This document shows, piece by piece, positions 17,494 to 34,560 of a stretch of 57,277 nucleotides of DNA. The notes beneath the pieces are model-generated. The model had not been told where the DNA came from and searched no databases. It was given only the letters and a program-made list of their open reading frames with translations. The position numbers were made by a program, and so were the translations under genes. Origin of the DNA: a virus (Duplodnaviria > Heunggongvirae > Uroviricota > Caudoviricetes); the IMG/VR virus record IMGVR_UViG_2721755643_000007; one strand, given 5' to 3'. Position 1 is the first letter of the stretch. Each line of letters starts with the position of its first letter.

Positions 17494-18813
17494 TTACACT
17501 GGTGTGTTCAGCAAATCGTTAACGGCATCAGATGCCGGGTTACCTGCAGCCAGTGGTGCCGGTGCCCCCTGCATCAGACGATCCAGCGCAGTGTCACTGC
17601 GCGCCTGTGCACTCTGTGGTGCAGCTGCCAGAATGCGGCGGGCCGTTTCCACGGTCATACCGGGGGTTTCGGCCAGCACACGTGCCTGTTCTTCGCGTCC
17701 GTGAGCTTCCTCACAGTTGAGGATCCCCATAATGCGGCTGTTTTCTGCCGCAACCGCAGCGGTGATCTGCGCGTTCACGTCCGGCTGCGCCGCGCTGGCG
17801 TTTTCGCCCTCCGTCGCTTGCACCACGTCAGTAACGTCAGCCTGCGAAGCAGTGGCTGAAACAGTTGTTGATTGAGTCTCTTTGGTCATTCGCCCTCCTG
17901 AGAGACGGGATTTACGTGCATCCAGTGCATCACGCATAACGGTGATCGCATCGGTGCTGTTGACAAGTTCATCAGCCAGTCCGGCATCAATGGCCTCCTG
18001 ACCGCTGTACACTGCAGCCTCGGTATCCAGCACAGCCTGCACGGACAGGCCGGTATATGCCGACACCTTCTGCGCAAACATCCGGCGGGTTGCATCCATC
18101 CGGGACTGCAGTGTCTCCCGGACATCACCCGGTAGATGGCTGTAGGGGTTGCCATCCACCTTATGGCTGCCGCTGTAAATCAGCGTGATTTCCACGCCCT
18201 GTTTCTCCAGCGCAGCGCCGTAATTACTGTGAGCCATCATGACGCCGATGGAGCCTGTCCGGGCGGTCTGCGTGACCAGACGCCGGGAGGCGGCGCTGGC
18301 AAGCAGCTGACCTGCACTGCAGTTCATGTCGTTGGCCAGCGCCCATACCGGCTTTATGTCACGCACACGGGCGATGATGTCAGCACAGTCAAATGCTCCC
18401 GCCACCATCCCGCCCGGTGTGTCCATATCGAGCAGAATGCCGTCCACCATCGGATCGCTGGCAGCCTGTTGCAGACGAGCGATAATGCCGTTGTAACCGG
18501 TCATTCCCGAATACGGCTGCAGCGCCCGCGTCCGGCTGACCAGCGTACCGGACACCGGCAGCACGGCGATGCCGTTCATGACCTGATAACTGCGGGCCTG
18601 TCGTGGTCCGTCATCATCACCGGATAACGCCAGCGCCGCGGGTGCCTCTCCGGCAGTCAGGCTGTCGCCGGATACTGCATCCGTCAGGCGACTGATCCCA
18701 AGCTGGCCTGCAAGCGCACAAAAGAAAACCCGCGCATAGGCGGGTTCAAGCATCAGCGGCTCATTAAAAGCCATGCTGGCAATATGCGGGAGATTACGCA
18801 GCTCTGCTGTCAC
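17494..18813 (-). CDS. C: capsid protease/scaffold protein C (Nu3 nested in-frame)
   Basis: 439 aa lambda C-like from (V)TAELRNLPHIASMAF; GTG start preceded by AGGAGG; overlaps the end of B by 20 nt. Confidence 0.9.
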   Translation of the reverse strand: MTAELRNLPHIASMAFNEPLMLEPAYARVFFCALAGQLGISRLTDAVSGDSLTAGEAPAALALSGDDDGPRQARSYQVMNGIAVLPVSGTLVSRTRALQPYSGMTGYNGIIARLQQAASDPMVDGILLDMDTPGGMVAGAFDCADIIARVRDIKPVWALANDMNCSAGQLLASAASRRLVTQTARTGSIGVMMAHSNYGAALEKQGVEITLIYSGSHKVDGNPYSHLPGDVRETLQSRMDATRRMFAQKVSAYTGLSVQAVLDTEAAVYSGQEAIDAGLADELVNSTDAITVMRDALDARKSRLSGGRMTKETQSTTVSATASQADVTDVVQATEGENASAAQPDVNAQITAAVAAENSRIMGILNCEEAHGREEQARVLAETPGMTVETARRILAAAPQSAQARSDTALDRLMQGAPAPLAAGNPASDAVNDLLNTPV

Positions 18814-19567
18814 TCTTCTCCTCCTCTGTTGATTGTCGCAGTCCGGATTCAAATGCCGCAGCCGCCCAGGCGGGCGGTTTAAGACCGGCTGCACGGCGCT
18901 CCATCGTTTCACGGACCTGCTGGGCAAAAATTTCCTGATAGTCGTCACCGCGTTTCGCGCACTCTTTCTCGTAGGTGCTCAGTCCGGCTTCTATCAGCAT
19001 CACCGCTTCCTGAACTTCTTTCAGACCATCGATGGCCATACGACCGGAGCCTATCCAGTCGCAGTTCCCCCAGGCACTGCGGGCTTCCTGAAAGCTGAAG
19101 CGCGCTTTTGAAGGTAACGTCACCACGCGGCGAACGATGGCCTCTTCAAGCCAGCACAGAAACATCTGGCTCGCCTGACGGGATGCGACGAATTTTCGCC
19201 GCCCCATAAAGTACGCCCACGACTCGTTCGCACTGGCCCGTGCCGTGGAGTAGCTCATCTGGGCGTAATTCCGGGAAAGCTGCTCATACGAGACACCCAG
19301 CCCGGCAGCGATATACCGCAACAGTGACTGCTCAAACACGGAGTAGCCGTTATCCGTATCCTGAGCCGTCTGCAGGTTCAGTGAGTCCCCCGGCATCAGG
19401 TGCGGCACTTTTGCGCCTCCCAGACGGACCGGTGCTGCGGCGTAATACGCGGCAATTTCACCAATCCAGCCCGTCAGCCTTTCCCGCTGCTCCTGACTGT
19501 TCGCGCCCAGAATAAAATCCATCGCTGACTGCGTATCCAGCTCACTTTCAATGGTGGCGGCATACAT
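18794..19567 (-). pseudogene. B: portal protein B, C-terminal fragment (gene split by the island insertion)
   Basis: 257 aa MYAATIESELDTQSAMDFILGANSQEQ...EEEKSDSRAA matches the C-terminal part of lambda gpB; begins exactly at the insertion junction. Confidence 0.9.
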
Positions 19568-19645
19568 CGCCTTTATGAAAAGACAGGAAAAAATAAAATT
19601 TAAAAACAGTACATTACGAATGCTCAGACCTATCGTTTAAAGGAG

Positions 19646-19670
19646 TCGCAATACACACTGCAATACACGA
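19646..19670. repeat. direct repeats GCAATACAC(A) near the island left end, candidate integrase arm-type sites
   Basis: CGCAATACACA and CTGCAATACACGA in tandem; same motif occurs three times at the right end. Confidence 0.5.
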
Positions 19671-19702
19671 TTATTTATAAGATGAGCGGCATCCGTCATA
19701 AA

Positions 19703-19941
19703 GCTGGTGGATGCTTTTTCTATGCATATATGCACAGTTTTAGTGGGCGTTAATGTCGATATAGGGATCCCCATATCGAGATTGGATACCTGGCTTTTTT
19801 CCGGTTAACCTTTAATCAGGCTGGTGGGCTTTACCTGTTTTGTATGAGTGGTCATCATGACCATGTCATAACAAAAACCCCATATTCGTGGTTTTTCTGT
19901 GTCGGGCTATTCTGTCGTTGCTGTGCTGATTTGGCTGGTGG
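19703..19941 (+). other. cluster of three Chi sites (5'-GCTGGTGG-3') within 240 bp, same orientation
   Basis: Exact octamers at 19703-19710, 19820-19827 and 19934-19941 on the plus strand in non-coding DNA, interleaved with palindromes (TGCATATATGCA, TCGATATAGGGATCCCCATATCGA, TGGTCATCATGACCA). Confidence 0.7.
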
Positions 19942-20009
19942 GCTGAATCATCATTACGGCGATGCAGCTATGTAGACGTTCCGGCCTCCTCAAATTGAGG
20001 ATTGTGGAA

Positions 20010-20400
20010 GAATCAATGGGTTAGTCTTACTTTCCCGACATCCCCCAATGGGGGTTTTCGAAACAATCAATAGCTTAGGCTTACTTCCCCGATTTCCTGC
20101 ATTGCAGGTTTTCGAAATAATCAATGGGTTAGGCCATCGTGCAATTTTGCACTTTGCCAGCCAGCGCAATGTCGCGTTATCAGTCCTCAGATGTGAGGGA
20201 TGTAGCCAGCTTTTCCCCCAGTGGGGGATATCCAGCACCGACGGCTTAACTGTGCGTGCCAGCACAAGGTAGCCTTGAACTACTTACTGCATCCCATCTT
20301 ACAGGCCGTGCCTTCCTGCTTAACTTTTTGCAATGCAACAAGTCAGCCAGCGCAATTTTGCGTTATCGGGAATATCAGCAAGTTACCGCCGCAATCGTTC
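20010..20400. repeat. array of imperfect direct repeats each carrying a short GC-stem hairpin
   Basis: Recurring ATCAATGGGTTAG / ATCAATAGCTTAG and GTTTTCGAAA flanks around hairpins CCCCCAATGGGGG, CTGCATTGCAG, GTGCAATTTTGCAC, CCCCCAGTGGGGG; GCCAGCGCAAT(N)TTGCGTTATC present twice. Confidence 0.55.
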
Positions 20401-20664
20401 CGGCTTCTTCCACTGGTAAGTATTTTTCGCGCTCTCCCTCCGTTGTTGAGAACGGCGACGATATGCCAGCAACTCAAGGACTCTTGTTCGTATGTTGCGC
20501 ATATCCACGCCGTTAAGCTCAATACCGTCACGGCGCATCACCTCAGCCACTACACGCACATAATTATCTGCGGTCACGCTGTCCGGCTGCGTGGCCTGTT
20601 CGTCATGCTGCTTGCTGATTCCACAAGCACGGCGGATTAATCGCAGTATTTCGGATTCAGTCAT
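20383..20664 (-). CDS. hypothetical protein (93 aa) immediately downstream of the island small terminase
   Basis: ORF MTESEILRLIRRACGISKQHDEQ...; basic C-terminus; no family recognised. Confidence 0.5.
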   Translation of the reverse strand: MTESEILRLIRRACGISKQHDEQATQPDSVTADNYVRVVAEVMRRDGIELNGVDMRNIRTRVLELLAYRRRSQQRRESAKNTYQWKKPERLRR

Positions 20665-20675
20665 AGCGTACTACG

Positions 20676-21230
20676 TTACTTATCTTTATTCGGCTGCAAC
20701 TTATCCGGTACGTTTCCGGCAGTTTCCATCAGATAATCGGACAGCATCAGCGGTATGTTTTCGTCAAGTTTTGCGCATGCGTTACAGGCTCTGATAACTT
20801 CTTTTTTCAGTCCATCCAGCATAGACGGCTTCATGTCGGGAAACTTCCTTGTCATGGCAAGCGGCAGGCTGTCCATGATTGAAGAAATCTGACTCGCCAA
20901 TTTTGAAAGCACGTATATACAAAACGCTGTATCAATAACGTCGCCGCGTTCGCGCTCGTTTTTAAGCTCCTGCGCCTCTGCCTGTGCTGTCAGCAATCTG
21001 ATCCTGACTCGTAGGAGTTCATCATCATCAATCTCGCCTTTGTCGTCTGTAATCTGGTTAATTGCATTGCTAACCCGATTGTCTATTACGCTGGCAACAT
21101 CATAAAACGCCTCGCGGCCTTTACGTTCAACGGGAGTCACTCCCCACTTGTCGAACGCTGTCGCACTTACACGGCAGCTTTGCGCCATGTTTTTTTTGTT
21201 CATCAGGTGCGATTTCATCAATATCCCCAC
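20676..21230 (-). CDS. terminase small subunit paralog (lambda Nu1-like) encoded by the island
   Basis: C-terminal two thirds align to helper Nu1 (RLLTAQAEAQELKNERERGDVIDTAFCIYVLSKLASQISSIMDSLPL versus [47 protein letters not shown]); adjacent to the island cos; true start may be the internal MNKK. Confidence 0.8.
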   Translation of the reverse strand: MGILMKSHLMNKKNMAQSCRVSATAFDKWGVTPVERKGREAFYDVASVIDNRVSNAINQITDDKGEIDDDELLRVRIRLLTAQAEAQELKNERERGDVIDTAFCIYVLSKLASQISSIMDSLPLAMTRKFPDMKPSMLDGLKKEVIRACNACAKLDENIPLMLSDYLMETAGNVPDKLQPNKDK

Positions 21231-21329
21231 TTAAGTAATGTTTCAGGTTGGTGTATTGGCTTTATCTTTTCCTTTTTATTCATAGAGATAGAGCGAACAA
21301 CAAAACCACCACCAGCACCCGAAAAAGGC

Positions 21330-21394
21330 TCATAAATAGCGAAAACCCGCGAGGTCGCCGCCCCGTAGCCTACCGGATCGCCGGAAAGGACCCG
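21330..21394. other. island cos site: cosN and cosQ-side sequence shared with helper cos, cosB side divergent
   Basis: 65 bp block nearly identical to 34091-34154 (3 mismatches); contains AGGTCGCCGCCC at 21352-21363, the reverse complement of the lambda cohesive end GGGCGGCGACCT; flanks diverge toward the TerS gene. Confidence 0.8.
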
Positions 21395-21419
21395 CCAGCC
21401 AGAACGGGCCCTAATTTCA

Positions 21420-21803
21420 TCAACCAATCAACTTATAGCGACCATCCCGTGCATTGCGACGTACACGCTCAATCTTGAGGCATAGCGCCGCATCTGGCTT
21501 TTTTGGGACAGGTACGCGGCAATATTCAGAAGATCGAGGAATATTGTTTATCCAGTCGATCACTTCACTTAAATACCAGGCCTTACGCCCTTCCGTAACC
21601 TGTACGCGTTCGGGGAACTCTCCGCGAGCCTCAAGGTTTAGCAATGTGCGACGGCTAAGGGTAGTAAGTTCCATCACCTGATTCATATCAACAAGGCGTT
21701 CACTTAAACGCATTTTGTCAGCAATAGCCTTTAATTCCTCTACTGCTGGATCCGGATACATCATTTCGGCAATTGGCTTAAGGTCATTGTAATGATTCTG
21801 CAT
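21420..21803 (-). CDS. AlpA-family HTH DNA-binding protein (second copy in the island)
   Basis: 127 aa with MELTTLSRRTLLNLEARGEFPERVQVTEGRKAWYLSEVIDWINN resembling AlpA-type motifs. Confidence 0.6.
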   Translation of the reverse strand: MQNHYNDLKPIAEMMYPDPAVEELKAIADKMRLSERLVDMNQVMELTTLSRRTLLNLEARGEFPERVQVTEGRKAWYLSEVIDWINNIPRSSEYCRVPVPKKPDAALCLKIERVRRNARDGRYKLIG

Positions 21804-21814
21804 TGTATCCCCCT

Positions 21815-22156
21815 TTACACACGAGCCAGCGGCTGAACAGAAATACCTGAGCCAACAAACGCGGCAACCTTTGCCGACAGTTCTTTTACAGACTCAGGCC
21901 AGTTCAGAGCATCAACATTTAAAACACCTGTCTTATAAACCTGTGCCTGTGTTTTTTTCACTGTGTCGATTTGTACAGCGGAAACATAAACCGCTTTACC
22001 TACGCTCGAACCATCCCATACCACCAGTGCACCTGTTGCATCTTCCTGCATCAGTGGCGTAAATGCAGGAATTACCCCTTTATTAGCTGAAAATATCCCC
22101 AGCGTAGTCACCAGTGCTTCAGTGCCAGCCATGAGTTCAGTGTAATGAGTAGCCAT
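21815..22156 (-). CDS. capsid decoration protein paralog (gpD-like) encoded by the island
   Basis: 113 aa; shares spaced motifs with helper D (TPLM.D, LV.WDG, YK.G, WPE, AF.G..IS) at low identity. Confidence 0.7.
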   Translation of the reverse strand: MATHYTELMAGTEALVTTLGIFSANKGVIPAFTPLMQEDATGALVVWDGSSVGKAVYVSAVQIDTVKKTQAQVYKTGVLNVDALNWPESVKELSAKVAAFVGSGISVQPLARV

Positions 22157-22165
22157 TGCTCCCCC

Positions 22166-23212
22166 TTAGCCAATGCGAACGGTAACAAAACGATTGATGC
22201 GGGCCGGTATTGGCTGTGGTGCTGAATGTGTCTGCACATATTCAATAGCCGGATCACCAGGCACAATATAGTTTTTCGGTGCAAGTTCGGCTTTAGTCAG
22301 CCCCATTCGGATTAGCTCCGGATCCTGAATACCGCCATAGGCGACAATCCCCTGAAGAGCCGTATTGCCAAGCACCATCAAATCAGGATCAAGGAAATGT
22401 TTTTCTGTTCCGTCCTCGTCGGTATAACGCCCGCTGTAAACAACAATCGCAACATCGCCCATATACCCTTTAAAACTCACCGAATCACCAAGGTCTTTAA
22501 GGGCCGTTTCCAGTTCGGAATTAGAACCACGACGGGTATCCAAAGCCTCTTTTATCGCTCTGAATGAACGGTATTTCTTCCATACATTACCACCCATAAT
22601 GATGATATTAGTGACGCCCTCACTAAATTCTGCGTAGCTCTCAATATCATCATTTGGATCAAAAGTTTCTTTATCCTTACCTGACCACTCAGTACCGCCA
22701 GACTGAGTGATGATATTTTGTGGTTTTATATTCCAGTCCAGCTCATAACGTTCAATACCATCGCCCTCAATGATATTTTTCCCCGTTGTGATTGCCTGAA
22801 CAGCAAGCCATTCAATACGTGCACGAATAGCTTTAGCCTGATTTACAATCGCCTGTTTAACTTTAATATTACGCGCCCCAAAAGCATTGTATTGCTCAGG
22901 TGACACACCAGCAGGGCGCACAGCTAACTTATTTGGATCAATGCTGCTTTTCGGCTTCATATAACCTGGACGAATTGTTTTTGATTCGTATCCCTCATCT
23001 CGTGAAACTTTACTGCCCACCATAGGAGAGCAAAACGCCGCGATCGGGATATTTGGATCGTCGATCGTATCAAGAATAATGTCTCTCGATTCAAACATTA
23101 CCGAGCGAGTGAAAAACAAACTGGTAAACAACGCATTTAATTTTTTTTGCACATCTTCAGCATTAGCCACCTGCACAAGCTGTGTAGGCGAATATAAATC
23201 AACCATACTCAT
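22166..23212 (-). CDS. major capsid protein paralog (gpE-like) encoded by the island
   Basis: Start MSMVDLYS; shares ITQSGGTEWS, DTRRGS.SELETA.KDLG and AIVVYSG with helper gpE; rough by-eye identity 35-40%. Confidence 0.85.
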   Translation of the reverse strand: MSMVDLYSPTQLVQVANAEDVQKKLNALFTSLFFTRSVMFESRDIILDTIDDPNIPIAAFCSPMVGSKVSRDEGYESKTIRPGYMKPKSSIDPNKLAVRPAGVSPEQYNAFGARNIKVKQAIVNQAKAIRARIEWLAVQAITTGKNIIEGDGIERYELDWNIKPQNIITQSGGTEWSGKDKETFDPNDDIESYAEFSEGVTNIIIMGGNVWKKYRSFRAIKEALDTRRGSNSELETALKDLGDSVSFKGYMGDVAIVVYSGRYTDEDGTEKHFLDPDLMVLGNTALQGIVAYGGIQDPELIRMGLTKAELAPKNYIVPGDPAIEYVQTHSAPQPIPARINRFVTVRIG

Positions 23213-23423
23213 CCTCTTTACATTCATTACAAATAATTGTGAATATATTCTATTACCGATGTCTGCTATGCGAATACATGCAACCAAGTGCAATGTTGTA
23301 TAAAATATGCCGTAACAACTTCAGTGCTGATAATTCGTGTTAATGTATTTACTTCCTTTGGTCGGGATTTATGTAGCATGCCGGAAAATCTATTTTTTTC
23401 CGGCATCTTTTTGTTTGCAGAAT

Positions 23424-23846
23424 TTAAAACGGTATATTATCGCCGTACGGATCATCATTCCCCGACTGTTGTTTTGCCCTGTTCAGTGCGTCAGTGGCCT
23501 GCCCCTGCTGGCCTTTTTTGCCGCCCGGTCGCGCCGTTCGCGCACTGATTACGCTGTCTGCGATAACCTGCCAGCCCCGCCGCGTTTCGCCGTTCTGGCC
23601 TGTCCACTGGCTTACCTGCATGTTACCCGCCACGCTCACCAGTTCGCCTTTGTGGTGTTTTGCCAGTGCGTCGGCCTGTCTGCCAAACGCCAGGACGGAT
23701 AACCACATCGTCGCCGTTCCGTCATCTGCCTGGCTGCACGGCAGGGGAACCGCCATACTCGCCATCGCCATTTGTGTCCCTTTGCTGGTGGTCTTTAACT
23801 GCGGGTCAGCCACCAGCCGCCCGTAAGCCGCTATCTGTGCTGTCAT
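23424..23846 (-). CDS. single-stranded DNA-binding protein (SSB-like)
   Basis: 140 aa; OB-fold-like N-terminus, Gly/Gln-rich linker, acidic tail ending DDPYGDNIPF. Confidence 0.75.
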   Translation of the reverse strand: MTAQIAAYGRLVADPQLKTTSKGTQMAMASMAVPLPCSQADDGTATMWLSVLAFGRQADALAKHHKGELVSVAGNMQVSQWTGQNGETRRGWQVIADSVISARTARPGGKKGQQGQATDALNRAKQQSGNDDPYGDNIPF

Positions 23847-24157
23847 GCTGTCTGCTCTCCGGTTTTAACATTGATGGTTGTCACCTGTTCCGCTTCGGCA
23901 ATCTCCCGTTCTGTCAGCGTGGCAAAGTTTGCCGCTGCTGTGGTCATGAATGCGCTTATCAGGTCGGGATGTTCCTTCGCGTATCCTGCCCGTGTGTGGT
24001 GGTCTATCGCTTTGATTGCCACCTTTAAGGAAAGCTCTGTCATGTCTAACGCTTTATATTTTGCCTGTGTTCTGTCTCTGCGAATTTTGGTCATTTGTCG
24101 CCCCTGATTCATGTTTTCGGCTGGCATGTTTGTTAAGTGATTTTTATGTATGCGCAT
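23843..24157 (-). CDS. hypothetical protein (104 aa)
   Basis: ORF with stop/start overlap to SSB, downstream of the ori iterons. Confidence 0.45.
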   Translation of the reverse strand: MRIHKNHLTNMPAENMNQGRQMTKIRRDRTQAKYKALDMTELSLKVAIKAIDHHTRAGYAKEHPDLISAFMTTAAANFATLTEREIAEAEQVTTINVKTGEQTA

Positions 24158-24169
24158 TTATTTTCACCC

Positions 24170-24440
24170 CCCCTCGTTTAAAAAGTTTTTAGTTGTGCCT
24201 CCCCCCCTCTACCCATCTACCCGAATGCTCACCATGTCAGTAATGGCGCGGCTTTCAGCGGGTAGATAGCTTTTTGACTCCTCTACCTGCCGTCTACCCT
24301 GCTACCTGAAACTGATAAAATCAGGTAGAAGAGGTAGAGAGCTTTTATTAGCCTTCTACCTAGCCCTATACCCACTTATCATGTTGAATAATATGCGTTT
24401 ATTTTGTTCAGGTAGATGGGGTAGATGGCTTTTACAAAAA
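24170..24440. repeat. iteron array (GGTAGA / TCTACC motifs), candidate island replication origin
   Basis: Many copies in both orientations (CTCTACCCATCTACCC, GGGTAGATAG, CAGGTAGAAGAGGTAGAGAG, CAGGTAGATGGGGTAGATGG) immediately 3' of the primase-helicase gene. Confidence 0.65.
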
Positions 24441-24441
24441 A

Positions 24442-26196
24442 TTATAAAAACGCGTCGCAATCGTCTGTTGTAATTGCGTTGGTCTGCGTTACTCCCTTAA
24501 CTTTTCGCGTAATATATTCATGCCCGTAAACTTTCGCCGCTGGCTTCATGGCCTTGCTGAACTCAGCCACGTTTAGCGGTTTGCTCCTGCCCGCGTATGC
24601 CATAAACGCCAGATAGACGCGGTAAAGGCTGTTCCTGGTCGTGTACTTCACTGAATCACCACCGCCACCCATCATCAGGCCGCGCGCTTCCTCCAGAAAA
24701 TTCAGGAACTGGCAAAACTCAATAACCGGATCCGTCTGTTGCTTTATTGCCAGTGCTTCATCACCGTCACGCTGTTCCAGTAGTAAAGCCCGTGCCTTCT
24801 CAGGGTCGGTAAAGTTCGCCAGCAATCGGCGGATAATAACGGGGATTTCAGCCGCAATCTTTTCCGGTAGCTCCCTGTCTTTTTCGGCCTCACTGACGAT
24901 ATTGTCGAAACGGAAAATCACGCGACGACGTGCCACACCTCCGGCCCGTTCGGTGAATATCATCGGGTTGTTGTTGGTCGCCAGCACCACCGCCCTGATT
25001 ACCGCCGTGAAACGCTTTTCATATTTCGGGTTAATTTCCACGGGGTCGCCGCCTGTGATTTTCTTGATGCCCGTTCCTTCGCCTGTATATTTCGGCTGGT
25101 CAGCCAGGACGATAAGACGACTCCCGACAACCTGCGCACGTCCACCAGCATCATCAAGCGATGTCATTTCAGCGCTTACCGTGTTCTGTTTCCCTGCCAG
25201 AAGGCTGGCTATGTGTGTGAATGTACTTTTACCGCTCCCGCCGTCTCCGGTGGCCTCAATAAACATCTGCCAGTCGTACCGATTCGCCATAATCATGTAC
25301 AGCGCGGCACATATACGCATCATCTTGCGCGGGTCTTTTCCGGCTGCGTGCTCAAGCCATTTATGAAAGTTTGGCGCGTTATCGCGGATGTTCTCCCCTG
25401 GTGCTGGTGGCGTGTACTCAATGCCGTTGTGCGTGGTGATCCAGTTCTCCGGCGTGTGCGGGGAAAATTCCCCCGTTTTCAGGTCAAGCGCACCATTGGC
25501 GAACGGCAGCAAATCGCCAGACGGCTCGCCCATTGGTTCGGCAATAACTTTTAACGCTTCCACGGCGTTATTGATTACGCGCTTGCTGAAAGTGGCCCTG
25601 TGCTCTGAATAGATCGCCACCATTTCGCGGCTAAGTTCCATTGTGCTGACCGGACACCATACCCCGCCGCGCCATACGTGAACGATTTCACTTTCAGGAT
25701 GTACGCAAACGCCATCAAAGCGATCGGCAAGCAACTGCGCGCGCTCACTGTCCGCCATCTGCGAAAGTTGCGCCTTTTGCTTTACCGGAAGCTCAATGAC
25801 CAGACCATCAGAAAGATTCTGGCGTTCACGGGCCAGATATTCGCGCCAGTTCTGCACCTCCTGGCCGTGCATACCCTCAGGATAAAAATTTGCATCCTGT
25901 ACGCCTGCTGCCGCCAGCTTCTGACCAATCGCCTTTATCATTACAGGCGCAAGATATCCGGCCCTGTATATGCGTGCTGATTTTCGGCCTTCCGGCACAA
26001 TTTGCAGATTATCCAGTTCGGATAGCTGCTGCTCCCCAAGCCACACAGGAGGCTCATTATCTCCGGCCATACGCGCATCATGTTCCTGCCATTGTTTCGC
26101 GTGTGCCCAGGCATCACTACCCGCAAAAATAATGACTTCTGTTCCTTTGTGTTTTATGCCGCGTGACTGCTGTTTTACGTTCGGTGCCAGTTTCAT
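24442..26196 (-). CDS. primase-helicase (D5 / P4 alpha-like NTPase with Walker A)
   Basis: 584 aa; Walker A GDGGSGKST; size and domain order typical of satellite and plasmid primase-helicases. Confidence 0.8.
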   Translation of the reverse strand: MKLAPNVKQQSRGIKHKGTEVIIFAGSDAWAHAKQWQEHDARMAGDNEPPVWLGEQQLSELDNLQIVPEGRKSARIYRAGYLAPVMIKAIGQKLAAAGVQDANFYPEGMHGQEVQNWREYLARERQNLSDGLVIELPVKQKAQLSQMADSERAQLLADRFDGVCVHPESEIVHVWRGGVWCPVSTMELSREMVAIYSEHRATFSKRVINNAVEALKVIAEPMGEPSGDLLPFANGALDLKTGEFSPHTPENWITTHNGIEYTPPAPGENIRDNAPNFHKWLEHAAGKDPRKMMRICAALYMIMANRYDWQMFIEATGDGGSGKSTFTHIASLLAGKQNTVSAEMTSLDDAGGRAQVVGSRLIVLADQPKYTGEGTGIKKITGGDPVEINPKYEKRFTAVIRAVVLATNNNPMIFTERAGGVARRRVIFRFDNIVSEAEKDRELPEKIAAEIPVIIRRLLANFTDPEKARALLLEQRDGDEALAIKQQTDPVIEFCQFLNFLEEARGLMMGGGGDSVKYTTRNSLYRVYLAFMAYAGRSKPLNVAEFSKAMKPAAKVYGHEYITRKVKGVTQTNAITTDDCDAFL

Positions 26197-26492
26197 TTTT
26201 TACCTCTGAATCCGTTAATCATGGTTTTCATTTTCTGGATATTTCCCCACGCTTTTTCCCTGCTGATGGGCTTACTGCGGGGTGCGGCATATACCAGGGA
26301 AAAATCACGCCGGAACTGATAAACAGGCATCACGCAGTCATAGCTATACCCCTCACGGCGGTAAGTGATGCGCCGTTCTGCCACGCCTTTAATCGTTACC
26401 GTGCCGCCGTATTTATCGCGGTAAATATCGCCGTTCATAAATTCAGGTCGAGCGGGGCCGCTGGCAATAAAGCCAGAATTTTTCATTTCCAT
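26193..26492 (-). CDS. hypothetical protein (99 aa)
   Basis: ORF overlapping the primase start by 4 nt (operon-like). Confidence 0.45.
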   Translation of the reverse strand: MEMKNSGFIASGPARPEFMNGDIYRDKYGGTVTIKGVAERRITYRREGYSYDCVMPVYQFRRDFSLVYAAPRSKPISREKAWGNIQKMKTMINGFRGKK

Positions 26493-26509
26493 ATTATTTA
26501 TTCCTCGAC

Positions 26510-26731
26510 TTAACTCGACTTATTTGATAGCAGGGCACTATTTATTGCGTCATTGAGTTTTTCTGCTGATTCATCAATAAGTGACAACAGGCCATAAGCA
26601 ATATTTGCATCTTCATTGTCATTTATGCAATCAAGCCACATATTTAATATTGCTTTTGCTGAATTATTTAAAGTTAATGAACTTTCTGCACATGCTAACA
26701 ATTTAAAAAAGACTTCCCGTTCTGTATTCAT
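26510..26731 (-). CDS. hypothetical protein (73 aa)
   Basis: Small ORF in a tightly packed co-oriented cluster. Confidence 0.4.
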   Translation of the reverse strand: MNTEREVFFKLLACAESSLTLNNSAKAILNMWLDCINDNEDANIAYGLLSLIDESAEKLNDAINSALLSNKSS

Positions 26732-26923
26732 TTAATCCCCCACCAGCTTACTTTCTTCCTCAATCAAAAAACTAGCGACACTTCCCGAAAGACGCGCCAG
26801 TAGGCTCGCCAGTGCGGATATATCAGCATCTGTAATTTTGTTCGGGTATACCTCAAGAAGGCGGCAAATAATTTCTGTCTGGTGCGCACGTTCAGCGGCT
26901 TCGTGTAATGTAATTTCCTGCAT
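26732..26923 (-). CDS. hypothetical protein (63 aa)
   Basis: Small ORF, abutting its neighbours. Confidence 0.4.
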   Translation of the reverse strand: MQEITLHEAAERAHQTEIICRLLEVYPNKITDADISALASLLARLSGSVASFLIEEESKLVGD

Positions 26924-27108
26924 TAATGCACCTCTTTTAATTCATACACTGCTGAAATAATGACTTGTGATAAGCCATATTCTGATGATTCGCTTCTCAC
27001 CGCAGCAATAGCCGTCTGAACATTAACAGCCTTCACATTCTGAGCGATACCAATTGTGTGGCCTATTGGGTTAACAGCTCGGGCAAATACACGGAAGGTT
27101 TTAAGCAT
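26923..27108 (-). CDS. hypothetical protein (61 aa)
   Basis: First gene of the leftward small-ORF operon, facing the divergent control region. Confidence 0.4.
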   Translation of the reverse strand: MLKTFRVFARAVNPIGHTIGIAQNVKAVNVQTAIAAVRSESSEYGLSQVIISAVYELKEVH

Positions 27109-27389
27109 GACTCACTCCCTGGCGGATTTTTGCAGCGAATACAGCAACACAACCGGACGGGCAACGGCTACGCGCTTCGCGTTCCGTCCAGGCGGTTACG
27201 TGGATGATTTGAGATTCTCCGGCACTCAGTGCCAGAAAACGCCACACAAAGGCCGTTTGTGTGTGTACAAGGTGTGGTATATGATTTACAGCAACCATAA
27301 CGGCTCCTAGTTTACGTTGTTGGTTAGACGCCCCGTATGTGTTCCCAGCACTGCGGGGCGTTGCTCTTTGTATTTCAACAATCCTTTCG

Positions 27390-27468
27390 GTGTGTTTCAT
27401 GTTATGAGCGCATGAAACACACGTCAAGGCTTTTTGTATTTCTTTTTTTGTGTATACTGAAACACACC
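27390..27468. promoter_or_regulatory. candidate operator/promoter: 12-bp perfect inverted repeat plus an extra half-site overlapping a -10-like TATACT
   Basis: GTGTGTTTCATG-(9 nt)-CATGAAACACAC at 27390-27422; half-site TGAAACACACC at 27458-27468; TATACT at 27453-27458; AGGAG before the ATG at 27489. Confidence 0.5.
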
Positions 27469-27488
27469 GATGATTAGGAGTTTCAGAA

Positions 27489-27794
27489 ATGGCAACGGCT
27501 AACAAAAACGCAAAATCACAACTGACAACTGTCAGAGTCCCACTAGATGTTATGCAAGGGATGGAATCCGTTAAGCTGGACGGTGAAAGCAATGCCGGAT
27601 TTATCGTAACCGCCATGCGCGGAGAAATAGCCCGCCGCCAAGCAGAAGGCAGCGGAGAAAATCCCCTTGTGTCGTCACTGGATGCCCTGGCTAAGGTCGA
27701 ACAAATCGGCATCAAAGCAGCCGAGGAGATCGGGCAACTCGTCACCGTCGCGCGTGAAGAACTCCAGCGACGCAAGGTCAAAGAGCATGAATAG
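27489..27794 (+). CDS. putative ribbon-helix-helix DNA-binding regulator (candidate island repressor)
   Basis: 101 aa; N-terminal TTVRVPLDVMQGMESV fits the RHH beta-strand/helix pattern; transcribed opposite to the replication operon. Confidence 0.5.
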   Translation: MATANKNAKSQLTTVRVPLDVMQGMESVKLDGESNAGFIVTAMRGEIARRQAEGSGENPLVSSLDALAKVEQIGIKAAEEIGQLVTVAREELQRRKVKEHE

Positions 27795-27851
27795 CCAATA
27801 TCAGCGCCATAGTTTGAGGAACGCAGGCGCATTGCTTTACAGGACAGCACC

Positions 27852-28031
27852 ATGAGCGACACAGAATCAACCAAAACACCATCACCAACTCGTAAGAGAC
27901 GACGCAAAAATATAGCGCATGAACATGAATCAGAAAGATTCGCACCTTGTTCGTTTGCTCTTGAGAAATTCCTTAAAGAGCACAGGAAAAAGCTCTCGTT
28001 GCAAACCTTGGAACGAACCAAATCTGACTGA
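27852..28031 (+). CDS. small hypothetical protein (59 aa)
   Basis: ORF MSDTESTKTPSPTRKRRRKNIAHEHE... co-oriented with the RHH gene; below the ORF-track length cutoff. Confidence 0.3.
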   Translation: MSDTESTKTPSPTRKRRRKNIAHEHESERFAPCSFALEKFLKEHRKKLSLQTLERTKSD

Positions 28032-28127
28032 TCACATTGCCCACCAGCCGCAAATGTGGCATTGTTGGTGATGCTTTTGTTTTCCCTTGTTTCCACTGGC
28101 GACCCTTTTGCGGTCGCCTTTGTTTTG

Positions 28128-28706
28128 TCACTGAATGCGGTTACCAAAGTAAAACTCAGGCTGATATTCACGTATCAGCGTTTTTTCTTCTTCCTCCAGC
28201 TCACGCTTTTTGCGCTTACATGCCTGTAGCTCCCTCCCCTTCTCGCTGGCACTTATTTGATATTGCTCTTTACGGCGGGAAAAATCCTGTAATGCACCCC
28301 ACGGGATACCATAAGTCCCCGTTTTTCTGATACCTGGTATCACATTTCTGAATACCCAGTTACTGAAACGATGAGCAAATGTGCCAGGCGTCGTTGCTTT
28401 GCGGCTGCGGGCTATTAGTTTGTAGAAACCTGACTCAGAGATAATTCTCATATTCTGATTTCCTCCTGGGGTGTAAGTTAAATTTACTCCCTTTTCATCA
28501 TCATCAAGCATCTGCAACGCCGTACGCGAATTGGTTAGTTCCAGCGCAGCACAAACATCTTTTGCAACAAACCACGGATCGCCGTTCAGATACACCACAC
28601 GAACGTTCACACTATCAAAGCGCAGAACGACGAGATCACGAATATCGCAGAATTTTTTCACTGGACGAGCGTACCCCTTGCCCGTCACGGCAATATTTTT
28701 ATTCAT
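28128..28706 (-). CDS. Bro-N domain protein (antirepressor-like)
   Basis: 192 aa; N-terminal FDSVNVRVVYLNGDPWFVAKDVCAALEL typical of Bro-N. Confidence 0.75.
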   Translation of the reverse strand: MNKNIAVTGKGYARPVKKFCDIRDLVVLRFDSVNVRVVYLNGDPWFVAKDVCAALELTNSRTALQMLDDDEKGVNLTYTPGGNQNMRIISESGFYKLIARSRKATTPGTFAHRFSNWVFRNVIPGIRKTGTYGIPWGALQDFSRRKEQYQISASEKGRELQACKRKKRELEEEEKTLIREYQPEFYFGNRIQ

Positions 28707-28762
28707 CGCGTTTTTACCTTATAGACAAAAAACCCCTCGTGATGAGGGGCATTATTTACTGG

Positions 28763-29020
28763 TTATTGCTGTTTTGTTTTTCCAGGTTTCCATCCAGGAT
28801 GCCACTCACCACGGATCCATGCCTGAACCTCTGAAAGTCGATACCCTGCAGCACGTTCACCGATCTTGATACGTCGCGGGAATTTACCTGCCTGCTCCAT
28901 TTTCCAGCGTGTTGAGTTTGCCAGCGTGGTAAGTGCTATGCACTCTTTTTCACGAATGAACCGATCAATGTCCTTCATTGTGCGCAAATCGTTTTCATCA
29001 ACAAGAGAATAAATTGTCAT
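28763..29020 (-). CDS. AlpA-family transcriptional regulator / excisionase-like protein
   Basis: 85 aa; CIALTTLANSTRWKMEQAGKFPRRIKIGERAAGYRLSEVQAWI matches the AlpA pattern; immediately downstream of int. Confidence 0.8.
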   Translation of the reverse strand: MTIYSLVDENDLRTMKDIDRFIREKECIALTTLANSTRWKMEQAGKFPRRIKIGERAAGYRLSEVQAWIRGEWHPGWKPGKTKQQ

Positions 29021-29021
29021 A

Positions 29022-30263
29022 TCACACCACCTCTTTATTAAGCTCGATAACGTTGTTGTTAAATCCTGCTATCGTATTAAGGTAATTAACCCACATATTA
29101 AGCACCTCAAGTTTTTTCTTTATATGCCTGCTTTTATTGTAAACACCAGCAACCCCTTTCACTTTATGACCTAAAAGAAGTTCGACAATATAAGGATCCG
29201 CCCCCATATCATTAAGCGTAGTGGAAAATGTGCGCCTGAAATCATGTATGCACCACAAGCCATTAGTATCATGACCAAGACGCCTGCATATTCTGTTTGC
29301 AGCCCCTGTTATTGTCGCCCTTTGCAAAGCACAACCGACAACATAACCGCGATTTTTTGTTTCTGCGTAAAGATTAACGATCCATTGTTTTATTCCGTCA
29401 GGAACAGGCCTTACTATAGCCTCCTTGTTTTTGCTGTGCTCTTTTGGGACTGTCCATACCCAGTTTTTTAAATCCCATTCGTCCCAGGTGGATAGCCTCG
29501 CCTCCTGCTGTCGGCAACCAAACACCAGGCAGATAACCATTATTCTTCGGTTATATATTGATGACAGAGTTAGCAAATTATTACCGTAAGCATAAGACCA
29601 TACATCAGCGGTTTCATTGATATTAAGAACGCGATCCCTTATACCGGATGAGCGCCCGACATAACTTACGTTAATATCTCCAAAGGGATCGCACGCGATG
29701 TATTGCCTGACGCGACAAAAACGCAACGCCTGTTTGATATCAAGAAAAATTGCACCAGACATAACAGGCGCATTTTTTTTGATCCTGTCAAAGACGGTAA
29801 GCCATGTGTGTAATTTGCACTGTTCTATAGCCATATCACCGATATAGGGGAAGATATGCTTTTCAAATCGTTTTATTAAATATTCATGCTCTTTTCTGGC
29901 TGTTGTGGCGTGATTGTCGTACCAGTAAAACAGCGCATCCCTTACGGTCACTGGTTGCATAGTTTTTTCGGCAGCAAGTTTTATTTGCCTGCGGGGGTCC
30001 AGATTTTCAGCCAGCCATTCACGGCACTGATCACGCATGCGCCTGGCCGTTGCAAGAGACATGTCAGGATAGCGACCAAGTGTAAGCCATACCGGAGGGG
30101 ATTCCCTGCCACCAAGACGATAGTAAAAAACAAAGCTGATCCCCCCAACCATGCTTACACGCACAGACAACCCGCGCCCATCCGCTATTGTTTTTTGTTT
30201 GTCCTGCCGTTTTCCGACAAGACTCTTTAACAGTTTGTCACTGAGTTTGTTTTCAATAGCCAT
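29022..30263 (-). CDS. tyrosine integrase (P4-type, with N-terminal arm-binding domain)
   Basis: 413 aa; N-terminal DGRGLSVRV / YRLGG / LGRYPDMSLATAR motifs; C-terminal HDFRRTF ... LLGH ... VYNKS. Confidence 0.9.
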   Translation of the reverse strand: MAIENKLSDKLLKSLVGKRQDKQKTIADGRGLSVRVSMVGGISFVFYYRLGGRESPPVWLTLGRYPDMSLATARRMRDQCREWLAENLDPRRQIKLAAEKTMQPVTVRDALFYWYDNHATTARKEHEYLIKRFEKHIFPYIGDMAIEQCKLHTWLTVFDRIKKNAPVMSGAIFLDIKQALRFCRVRQYIACDPFGDINVSYVGRSSGIRDRVLNINETADVWSYAYGNNLLTLSSIYNRRIMVICLVFGCRQQEARLSTWDEWDLKNWVWTVPKEHSKNKEAIVRPVPDGIKQWIVNLYAETKNRGYVVGCALQRATITGAANRICRRLGHDTNGLWCIHDFRRTFSTTLNDMGADPYIVELLLGHKVKGVAGVYNKSRHIKKKLEVLNMWVNYLNTIAGFNNNVIELNKEVV

Positions 30264-30281
30264 TAAAAGCCCTCAAGAGAT

Positions 30282-30335
30282 TTGCAATACACACCCATCC
30301 CGATCGCCAATTTGCAATACACATTGCAATACACA
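30282..30335. repeat. three direct copies of TTGCAATACACA between int and the right junction, candidate arm-type sites
   Basis: Copies at 30282-30293, 30312-30323 and 30324-30335; same motif as at 19646-19670. Confidence 0.5.
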
Positions 30336-30411
30336 AAACCGCGAAAAACTGGAAGGGTGATGAACGGTCATCAAAAGCATGGAAAACGACATTCCAGACG
30401 CAGCAAGGGTT

Positions 30412-33392
<2,981 letters not shown>

Positions 33393-33418
<26 letters not shown>

Positions 33419-33938
33419 TCAGCAACCCCGGTATCAGTTCATCCAGCGCGGCTGCTTTGTTCATGGCTTTGATGATATCCCGTTTCAGGAAATCAACATG
33501 TCGGTTTTCCAGTTCCGGAAAACGCCGCTGCACCGACAGGGGGATCCCGTCGAGAATACTGGCAATTTCACCTGCGATCCGCGACAACACGAAAGTACAG
33601 AATGCGGTTTCCACCACTTCAGCGGAGTCTCTGGCATTCTTCAGTTCCTGTGCGTCGGCCTGCGCACGCGTAAGTCGATGGCGTTCGTACTCAATAGTCC
33701 CTGGCTGGAGATCTGCCTCGCTGGCCTGCCGCAGTTCTTCAACCTCCCGGCGCAGCTTTTCGTTCTCAATTTCAGCATCCCTTTCGGCATACCATTTTAT
33801 GACGGCGGCAGAGTCATAAAGCACCTCATTACCCTTGCCACCGCCTCGCAGAACGGGCATTCCCTGTTCCTGCCAGTTCTGAATGGTACGGATACTCGCA
33901 CCGAAAATGTCAGCCAGCTGCTTTTTGTTGACTTCCAT
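33393..33938 (-). CDS. Nu1: terminase small subunit Nu1
   Basis: 181 aa MEVNKKQLADIFGASIRTIQNWQEQGMPV matches lambda Nu1. Confidence 0.95.
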
Positions 33939-34160
33939 TGTTCATTCCACGGACAAAAACAGAGAAAGGAAACGACAGAGGCCAAAAAGCTCGCTTTCAG
34001 CACCTGTCGCTTCCTTTCTTTTCAGAGGGTATTTTAAATAAAAACATTAAGTTATGACGAAGAAGAACGGAAACGCCTTAAACCGGAAAATTTTCATAAA
34101 TAGCGAAAACCCGCGAGGTCGCCGCCCCGTAACCTGTCGGATCGCCGGAAAGGACCCGCA
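33939..34160. other. helper prophage cos site (cosB-cosN-cosQ)
   Basis: AGGTCGCCGCCC at 34116-34127 is the reverse complement of the lambda cohesive end; flanking sequence matches the recalled lambda left end toward Nu1. Confidence 0.85.
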
Positions 34161-34326
34161 AAATGATAATAATTATCATCTGCATGTCACAACGTGCATC
34201 TACGCCATCAAACCACGTCAAATAATCAATTATGACGCAGGTATCATATTAATTGATCTGCATCAACTTAACGTAAAAACAACTTCAGACAATACAAATC
34301 AGCGACACTAAATACGGGACAACCTC

Positions 34327-34560
34327 ATGTCAACGAAGAACAGAACCCGCAGAACAACAATCCGCAACATCCGCTTTCCTAACCAAATGATTGAACAAAT
34401 TAACATCGCTCTTGATCAAAAAGGGTCCGGGAATTTCTCAGCCTGGGTCATTGAAGCCTGCCGCCGGAGACTGTGCTCAGAAAAAAGAGTTTCTCCTGAA
34501 GCAAACAAAGAAAAGAGTGACATTACTGAATTGCTCAGAAAACAGATCAGACCAGATTGA
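34327..34560 (+). CDS. small DNA-binding protein, ribbon-helix-helix-like
   Basis: 77 aa; IRNIRFPNQMIEQINIALDQ...NFSAWVIEA fits an RHH fold. Confidence 0.45.
   Translation: MSTKNRTRRTTIRNIRFPNQMIEQINIALDQKGSGNFSAWVIEACRRRLCSEKRVSPEANKEKSDITELLRKQIRPD

Follow-up and report, generated by a model that had tools for sequence, protein, structure and literature searches.

The only packaging mechanism worked out for Escherichia coli phage-inducible chromosomal islands (PICIs) is that of Rpp, an experimentally proven packaging redirector (PMC6739421) that acts by heterodimerizing with the small terminase, TerS (PMC6739421, PMC9026076). In Rpp-type PICIs (EcCICFT073 cos1-rppA), the late genes run capsid E-like, decoration D-like, small gene, cos1, redirector and 93-amino-acid (aa) open reading frame (ORF); the redirector lies directly downstream of cos1, and cosQ and cosN sequences resembling those of the helper are joined to a cosB that differs (PMC6739421, PMC9026076). 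Lambdoid phages follow a related modular logic: their packaging-specificity groups (lambda, 21, phi80 and N15) have a common cosN and differ in cosB and TerS, the N-terminal domain of TerS pairing with cosB and its C-terminal domain with the large terminase, TerL (PMC9026076). Here we describe a phage satellite island that lies in the portal gene (gene B) of a lambda-like helper prophage, within a 57,277-nucleotide stretch of Caudoviricetes DNA (IMG/VR record IMGVR_UViG_2721755643_000007; hereafter, the window).

The island shares the late-gene order and cos layout of the Rpp-type PICIs, and redirected packaging is likewise what we propose for it; as among the lambdoid groups, island and helper have a common cosN and differ in cosB and TerS. 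An original prediction, made from the letters of the window, had set the island apart from an E. coli PICI strategy of a helper-identical cos plus an interfering protein. That contrast was mistaken, because Rpp-type PICIs already combine helper-like cosQ and cosN with a private cosB (PMC6739421, PMC9026076). The two types differ in other respects: the redirector here is a full-length TerS of 180 aa, whereas Rpp has 135-154 aa and is without the TerS C-terminal region; the DNA-binding domain is of the N15 type here and lambda-like in Rpp, with no detectable sequence similarity between the two proteins; and Rpp-type PICIs are reported without repeated R sequences (PMC9026076), whereas relatives of the TerS type show R3, an inverted R2 and R1.

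Two further systems bear comparison. The pac-type Staphylococcus aureus pathogenicity islands (SaPIs; SaPI1/SaPIbov1 TerS_S plus Ppi) are an established case of a satellite that carries a TerS homologue without a TerL; there, the satellite TerS pairs with phage TerL and reads a satellite-specific site. Use of the helper TerL by the present island is suggested by the matching cosQ and cosN. SaPIs have headful pac packaging, Gram-positive hosts, another TerS family and a separate interference protein, Ppi; the present island, by contrast, has a lambda-type cos with a 12-nucleotide (nt) cohesive end, at which the cutting site must match the helper while the recognition site is private. Among helper-embedded PICIs (HE-PICIs), the model element 11capE has the same zone order (integration, Bro, replication, late), and the portal site is among those listed, but 11capE is without terS and has 258 bp at 90% identity with its helper cos, cosB included (PMC10111431). 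The window island has only 65 bp in common with the helper cos and a TerS of its own. SatelliteFinder counts TerS among the core components of PICIs, and a 2018 ISME description states that some Gram-negative PICIs carry terS homologues; a Nu1 paralogue or TerS-type arrangement is not discussed in the HE-PICI paper (PMC10111431). In the literature searched, which left most subscription journals outside it, we found no description of an E. coli PICI whose rpp slot is filled by a full-length lambda Nu1-type TerS accompanied by a private cosB, nor of a cosQ-cosN that follows the helper while cosB follows the island.

We lean toward a reading in which the island TerS, bound to the island cosB, brings the helper large terminase, gpA, to a helper-matched cosN and so redirects packaging to the island.

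Mosaic anatomy of the island cos

The features of the two cos regions are as follows (bp numbers are positions in cos, and all features lie on the minus strand):

21330-21394, minus strand: island cosQ-spacer-cosN block in common with the helper, 62/65 identical to 34091-34154
21387-21393, minus strand: island cosQ, GGGTCCT, bp -30 to -24, read from the sequence and invariant in all island and helper cos compared
21352-21363, minus strand: island cosN cohesive end GGGCGGCGACCT, bp 1-12, where packaged island DNA is predicted to end; same as helper 34116-34127
21219-21329, minus strand: island-specific cosB, bp +35 to +145, conserved in PICIs of the TerS type and unrelated to the cosB of the helper
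21296-21316, minus strand: conserved block GCTGGTGGTGGTTTTGTTGTT, bp 48-68, at the R3 position; candidate TerS binding site by conservation and position
21245-21258, minus strand: conserved block CAATACACCAACCT, bp 106-119; inverted R2-like element by conservation
ACACCAACC, bp 110-118 of the island cosB
34091-34154, minus strand: helper cosQ-cosN block, cohesive end 34116-34127
33939-34090, minus strand: helper lambda-type cosB with visible CGTTTCC-type R elements, in the lambda layout of PMC9026076

The common block begins with cosQ, takes in the spacer and cosN, and ends at bp +34 of the left end, and the order cosQ-cosN-cosB-TerS is that of lambda, a point in favor of the reading above. 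The island cosQ was named from the position and sequence of cosQ in lambda. The near-identical 65-bp block and the cohesive end that the original prediction had placed in both cos regions were borne out: the alignment of the blocks is ungapped, and the window has exactly two copies of AGGTCGCCGCCC (reverse complement of lambda GGGCGGCGACCT), one at 21352-21363 and the other at 34116-34127. The three mismatches, at bp -9, -8 and -4, fall in the cosQ-cosN spacer, outside both cosQ and cosN (for the latter, the literature bounds of bp -2 to +14 were used). Identity was also said to end exactly where cosB starts. This holds roughly: identity does stop, at bp +34/35, but that is about 15 bp short of where R3 lies (bp 50-65). 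Over bp +35 to +125, island and helper agree at 39 of 91 positions, which is background.

A second, independent island/helper pair was found in a lambda-like prophage of Kosakonia sp. S29 (contig FONB01000025.1; L003 9851(+), L036 1985(+)), where an HE-PICI with the same late module as the window island is inserted near codon 83 of the helper capsid gene. The Kosakonia helper resembles the window helper (Nu1 86%, gpA 88% identical), and the TerS proteins of the two islands are 59% identical. When the cosQ-cosN block of each island was compared with that of its own helper, 62/65 positions agreed in E. coli and 58/65 in Kosakonia, vs 47-53/65 in comparisons with other islands (53/65 for the E. 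coli island), and a variant cohesive end, GGGCGGCAGACT, is common to the Kosakonia island and its helper. Within the chromosomal relative L058, cos1 and the phage-type cos2 of the same element agree at 61/65 positions of this block.

The cosB region behaves in the opposite way. Over 91 positions, islands agree with one another at 58-88, whereas they agree with helpers at 31-45. Two cosB blocks are nearly invariant across islands of E. coli, Superficieibacter and Kosakonia, with diverging flanks: the cross-genus form of the block at bp 48-68 is GCTGGTGGTGG(T/G)TTGTTGTT, and that of the block at bp 106-119 is CAATACACC(A/C)AC(C/T)TG. R3 occupies bp 50-65 in lambda and bp 48-60 in N15, and an R3 was predicted for PICIs at the same place (PMC9026076). 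A fuller set of elements is visible in the O157-type relative L058, which has R3, an inverted R2 and R1; here TTCAGGGTGGTG pairs with TTCAGGTTGGTG and AATACACCAAC with GTTGGTGTATT, and the R2-like block makes two pairs, a perfect inverted one of 11 nt with the R1-like site and one at 92% with the R3 region. A conserved TATC...TGAAT block between the R3 and R2 positions matches the consensus for integration host factor (IHF) weakly, and we do not claim an IHF site there.

At the level of sequence, the cosQ-cosN of the island thus goes with that of the helper in both of the independent pairs, and cosB together with the DNA-binding domain of TerS follows the island lineage across three genera. 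The two pairs and the cosB comparison support the predicted combination, in which cosN is shared and both cosB and TerS are private. By natural variation, this mosaic marks which parts of cos are read by TerL (cosQ, cosN) and which by TerS (cosB), and it may be useful for engineering PICI-based delivery vehicles with a chosen packaging specificity.

The island small terminase and its proposed role

Three terminase genes are present in this part of the window:

20676-21218, minus strand: island TerS of the Nu1 family, 180 aa (stop codon counted in the coordinates), with an N15-like winged-helix N-terminus and a Nu1-like C-terminal half
33393-33938, minus strand: helper Nu1, lambda-type TerS, 181 aa, full-length Pfam Phage_Nu1 match
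31493-33418, minus strand: helper gpA, TerL, 641 aa; no other TerL gene lies near the island, and gpA presumably cuts the island cosN

The island gene probably starts with the ATG at 21218, the start used in RefSeq and in relatives from other genera, and not with the GTG at 21230; this ATG lies at bp 146 of cos, compared with bp 191 in lambda and bp 89 in N15. That the gene is a diverged Nu1 paralogue, as first proposed, was confirmed by its BLASTP match to the helper Nu1 (37% identity, E = 4e-36), by Pfam Phage_Nu1 (PF07471; 85.7 bits against a cut-off of 30, profile positions 80-162 only) and by PHROG phrog_57, 'terminase small subunit', which covers the full length of the protein (E = 5e-51). 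It is also no pseudogene: the reading frame is intact, the ratio of nonsynonymous to synonymous substitution rates (dN/dS) is 0.17-0.26 between family members, and every segment is under purifying selection. An expected asymmetry, in which the DNA-binding N-terminus would have diverged from the helper Nu1 more than the gpA-interacting C-terminus, turned out to be marginal, with 38% identity in the DNA-binding domain, 32% in the middle and 44% at the C-terminus. Against the PDB, sequence queries with the complete island TerS and with its residues 1-79 retrieved spurious DARPin/ankyrin matches only, and Foldseek gave no significant match, the top weak ones being MerR-type winged helices.

Within the island family, conservation is highest in the N-terminal 50 residues (94-98% in E. 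coli, 68-74% across genera) and lowest in the C-terminal 73 residues (64-81% and 48-49%, respectively). The C-terminal half keeps the invariant residues of the Nu1 family. The stretch best conserved between the island TerS and the helper Nu1 is central, RIRLLTAQAEAQELKN in the island; its positions are invariant in the family, and the motif AQA(E/D)AQELKN is invariant in both proteins. Between the window and L057/L058, the synonymous rate dS is about 1.05-1.14 for codons 95-167 and 0.14-0.29 for codons 1-94, and this higher C-terminal dS suggests recombination that swaps the C-terminal half. An arms race with helper TerL is one possible reason for the fast evolution of that half.

The steps of the proposed mechanism would be these. 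Upon helper induction, the island would excise from the portal gene and replicate as concatemers. The N15-like winged-helix domain of the island TerS would bind the island cosB, with bp 48-68 and bp 106-119 as candidate sites, and the Nu1-like C-terminal half of the protein would bring helper gpA to the adjacent cosN. With cosN and cosQ kept helper-identical, gpA could then nick and terminate there, and island DNA would be packaged in preference to helper DNA, probably as four units (~43.6 kb) per lambda-size head. Recruitment of gpA is a step that we only infer, because the C-terminus of the island TerS is 44% identical to that of the helper Nu1 and does not track the helper.

Several observations weigh against this account. 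In the C-terminal region N15 gp1 is 85% identical to lambda-type Nu1, far above the value for the island TerS and its helper. Near-identical lambda-like helpers host two islands whose TerS C-termini are 49% alike, which led us to reject the idea that the C-terminus tracks the type of helper TerL or Nu1. A repeat search of the window's own island cosB detected no R-type repeats, so that sites there are assigned from conservation; the R consensus GGTTGGTGTATTG, allowing up to 3 mismatches, had 14 matches in the window vs 16 expected, showing no enrichment. Finally, the island cosB may not be strictly private, because an N15-like E. coli prophage that carries both a TerS and a TerL has a cos region matching the island's at 78% identity over 150 bp; as in L058, its layout is R3, inverted R2 and R1, here with the R sequence GGTTGTTGT.

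The affinity to N15 raises a different explanation, in which the module derives from lambdoid phages with an N15-like TerS and cosB and is tuned to them; it would then not drive packaging in this lambda-type prophage, and the island either uses other means with its present helper or is stranded in it. The closest phage TerS in a collection of 50,697 phage records is N15 gp1 (47.6% identity), and the DNA-binding domain of the island TerS is 55-59% identical to those of N15-type phages, against the lower value for the resident helper given above; like its cosB, it is nearest to the N15 type. Many HE-PICI helpers, moreover, look truncated according to the authors who described them (PMC10111431). 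We nevertheless regard a mismatch of this kind as improbable. The cosQ-cosN block is closest to that of the resident helper in both independent pairs, one of them with a variant cohesive end. In lambdoid phages, TerS is always followed by the phage's own TerL, whereas the island TerS stands alone: no large terminase gene follows TerS in the 8 loci inspected (the window plus 7 related), and a TerS that lies downstream of cos with no TerL after it is thereby marked as a satellite TerS. No phage TerS in the collection reaches 60% identity to it. The missing neighbor and this distance from phage proteins indicate an old satellite lineage rather than a recent capture.

Distribution of the module and the rpp slot

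The TerS plus cos segment is present at ≥80% coverage in 763/5426 complete E. coli genomes, and the same composite of island and helper occurs in at least 53 complete E. coli genomes. Six chromosomal relatives, among them one in an O157 strain, lie between phoQ/roxA or clpS/cspD and show a constant order of capsid, decoration, small gene, cos, TerS and 93-aa ORF. This distribution bears on whether the Nu1-like gene and cos are inert cargo, that is, captured remnants of helper late genes with no role in the spread of the island. HE-PICIs do capture helper late genes (PMC10111431), and in EcCICFT073 deletion of the PICI capsid or decoration gene left phage plaquing abnormal; these two genes are not the source of the interference there, because their deletion failed to restore plaquing. 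We consider inert cargo highly improbable for the cos-TerS module, given the low dN/dS, the presence of the module in so many complete genomes and at several integration sites, the conservation of the cosB blocks and the DNA-binding domain across genera, and the distance of the island TerS from any helper Nu1 (37% identity).

Rpp and the island TerS are alternative occupants of one slot next to cos1. In L064, an HE-PICI in gene A, the slot adjoining cos1 holds a genuine Rpp of 146 aa (E = 5.7e-31 to RppC), whose start codon lies at bp 102, as published for PICI-C. The Rpp-type cos1 of L064, at 8350(+), contains ACCACCACC at bp 55-63, and TerS-type islands contain its reverse complement, GGTGGTGGT, at bp 51-59 (21305-21313 in the window); islands of the Rpp and TerS types may share this 9-mer as a recognition core and read it in opposite orientations, or the match may be due to chance.

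The common slot suggests that the island TerS might work as Rpp does, forming mixed oligomers with helper Nu1 that read the island and not the helper cosB, and reaching gpA wholly or partly via Nu1, so that helper Nu1 would still be required. In addition to the position of the gene, the family-invariant central stretch could mediate hetero-oligomerization with helper Nu1, the C-terminus is unlike that of the helper, and heterodimerization with TerS is how Rpp itself acts (PMC6739421, PMC9026076). We nonetheless judge this to be unlikely, since the island TerS keeps a full-length, selected C-terminal half that is dispensed with in Rpp. The DNA-binding domains also differ in type: the Rpp N-terminus, at 29-30% identity, mimics the lambda-type Nu1 domain, whereas that of the island TerS is N15-like. 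Similarity between the two proteins was undetectable, with no PDB match of the island TerS to RppC and nothing found when Rpp was compared with the island TerS by BLASTP.

If the island TerS alone recruits helper TerL, the island would show how a cos-type satellite bypasses the helper small terminase, and it would offer a natural control for the suggestion by Murialdo and Feiss that helper TerS serves Rpp solely as a bridge to TerL. A PICI with the cos-TerS module is present in roughly one of every seven complete E. coli genomes, O157 strains included; the module, a common and unstudied alternative to Rpp, probably steers helper packaging to satellite DNA. A wider proposal, which we put forward tentatively, is that TerS-type PICIs represent a third, helper-TerS-independent way of capturing a cos-type motor, in which the helper TerS is replaced, cosQ and cosN are kept in step with the helper, and a DNA-binding domain and its cosB travel as a portable pair.

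Many related PICIs have a second, inverted cos; in L057, L058, L061 and L062 it lies on the opposite strand about 880 bp from cos1, and in L064 at 9120(-). These second cos sites have a phage-type cosB with R3/R2/R1 repeats of various phage specificities, comparable to cos2 of EcCICFT073; the window island is without a second cos.

A scan of genome contigs returned mostly ordinary lambda Nu1 genes; only two matches were loci of the island family, one of them the Kosakonia island with its helper. Lambda Nu1 was found on short, low-coverage contigs of unrelated genomes (L012-L021, L029, L035, L037-L039, L041, L051 and L052), including Kitasatospora, Paenibacillus, Bradyrhizobium, Oceanobacillus and others, and probably represents contamination of these assemblies with lambda DNA.

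The island within its helper prophage

The island is an HE-PICI of a published type, inserted at the portal site near Pfam position ~240 (PMC10111431). Its remaining features are listed here:

19566-19573, minus strand: attachment (att) core AAGGCGAT (8 bp), the copy adjoining the portal C-terminal fragment 18794-19567
30464-30471, minus strand: att core AAGGCGAT, the copy adjoining the portal N-terminal fragment 30412-31293
29022-30263, minus strand: island tyrosine integrase, then AlpA at 28763-29020
21815-23206, minus strand: island paralogues of lambda D (21815-22156) and E (22166-23206)
21420-21803, minus strand: second AlpA-like helix-turn-helix gene, directly upstream of the island cos
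20383-20664, minus strand: 93-aa ORF of unknown function, conserved (phrog_1561), always after TerS and, in Rpp-type PICIs, after Rpp

From repeat to repeat the island measures 10,898 bp, with all main genes on the minus strand. Insertion took place at the 8-bp core without replacement sequence in the portal gene: the N-terminal fragment corresponds to Pfam portal positions 2-242 and the C-terminal fragment to positions 238-354, and both are pseudogene pieces in the RefSeq annotation. Because the island interrupts gene B, the helper would be without a portal protein until the island excises.

The gene order is integrase, AlpA, Bro-N, Icd-like, DUF4222, D5-type primase and single-stranded DNA-binding protein (SSB), followed by a late module of capsid E-like, decoration D-like, second AlpA-like gene, cos, TerS and the 93-aa ORF. 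Gram-negative PICIs are marked by a terminal integrase, an alpA regulator and a primase/replication module read in a single direction, by a length of about 10-15 kb and by the lack of tail and lysis genes; in agreement, the integrase, AlpA, Bro-N, D5_N/DUF5906 primase and SSB of the island all lie on the minus strand, and the E-like and D-like genes are the only structural genes. Over 410 aa, the integrase is 53% identical to that of the Kosakonia capsid-gene HE-PICI. The island E paralogue is about 40-42% identical to helper-type E (tblastn, related loci), and the helper has its own E and D.

The sequence GCAATACAC occurs five times in the window, always at the island ends (19648-19668, 30284-30292 and 30314-30334), each of which has it in doubled form; chance alone would give about 0.7 copies, and five copies were reached in 0/100 shuffles. 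This sequence probably corresponds to the 'doubled motif' that has been reported from attP regions of HE-PICIs. A similar sequence, CAATACACC, sits in the R2-like block of the island cosB.

Three units of 54 nt stand in tandem at 19981-20142 (to ~20260); every unit contains a short hairpin, and further similar hairpins are present. The stems of the three units differ yet stay complementary (CCTCAAATTGAGG, CCCCCAATGGGGG and CCTGCATTGCAGG), and the minus-strand RNA of this unannotated stretch folds with z = -3.8; a search of 19400-34400 against Rfam gave no match. Relatives of the island hold the inverted cos2 at this place. Lastly, a gene of the YlcI/YnfO family is found in both the helper (34327-34560, plus strand, just past cos) and the island (27489-27794, plus strand), in each case on the strand opposite to the other genes.

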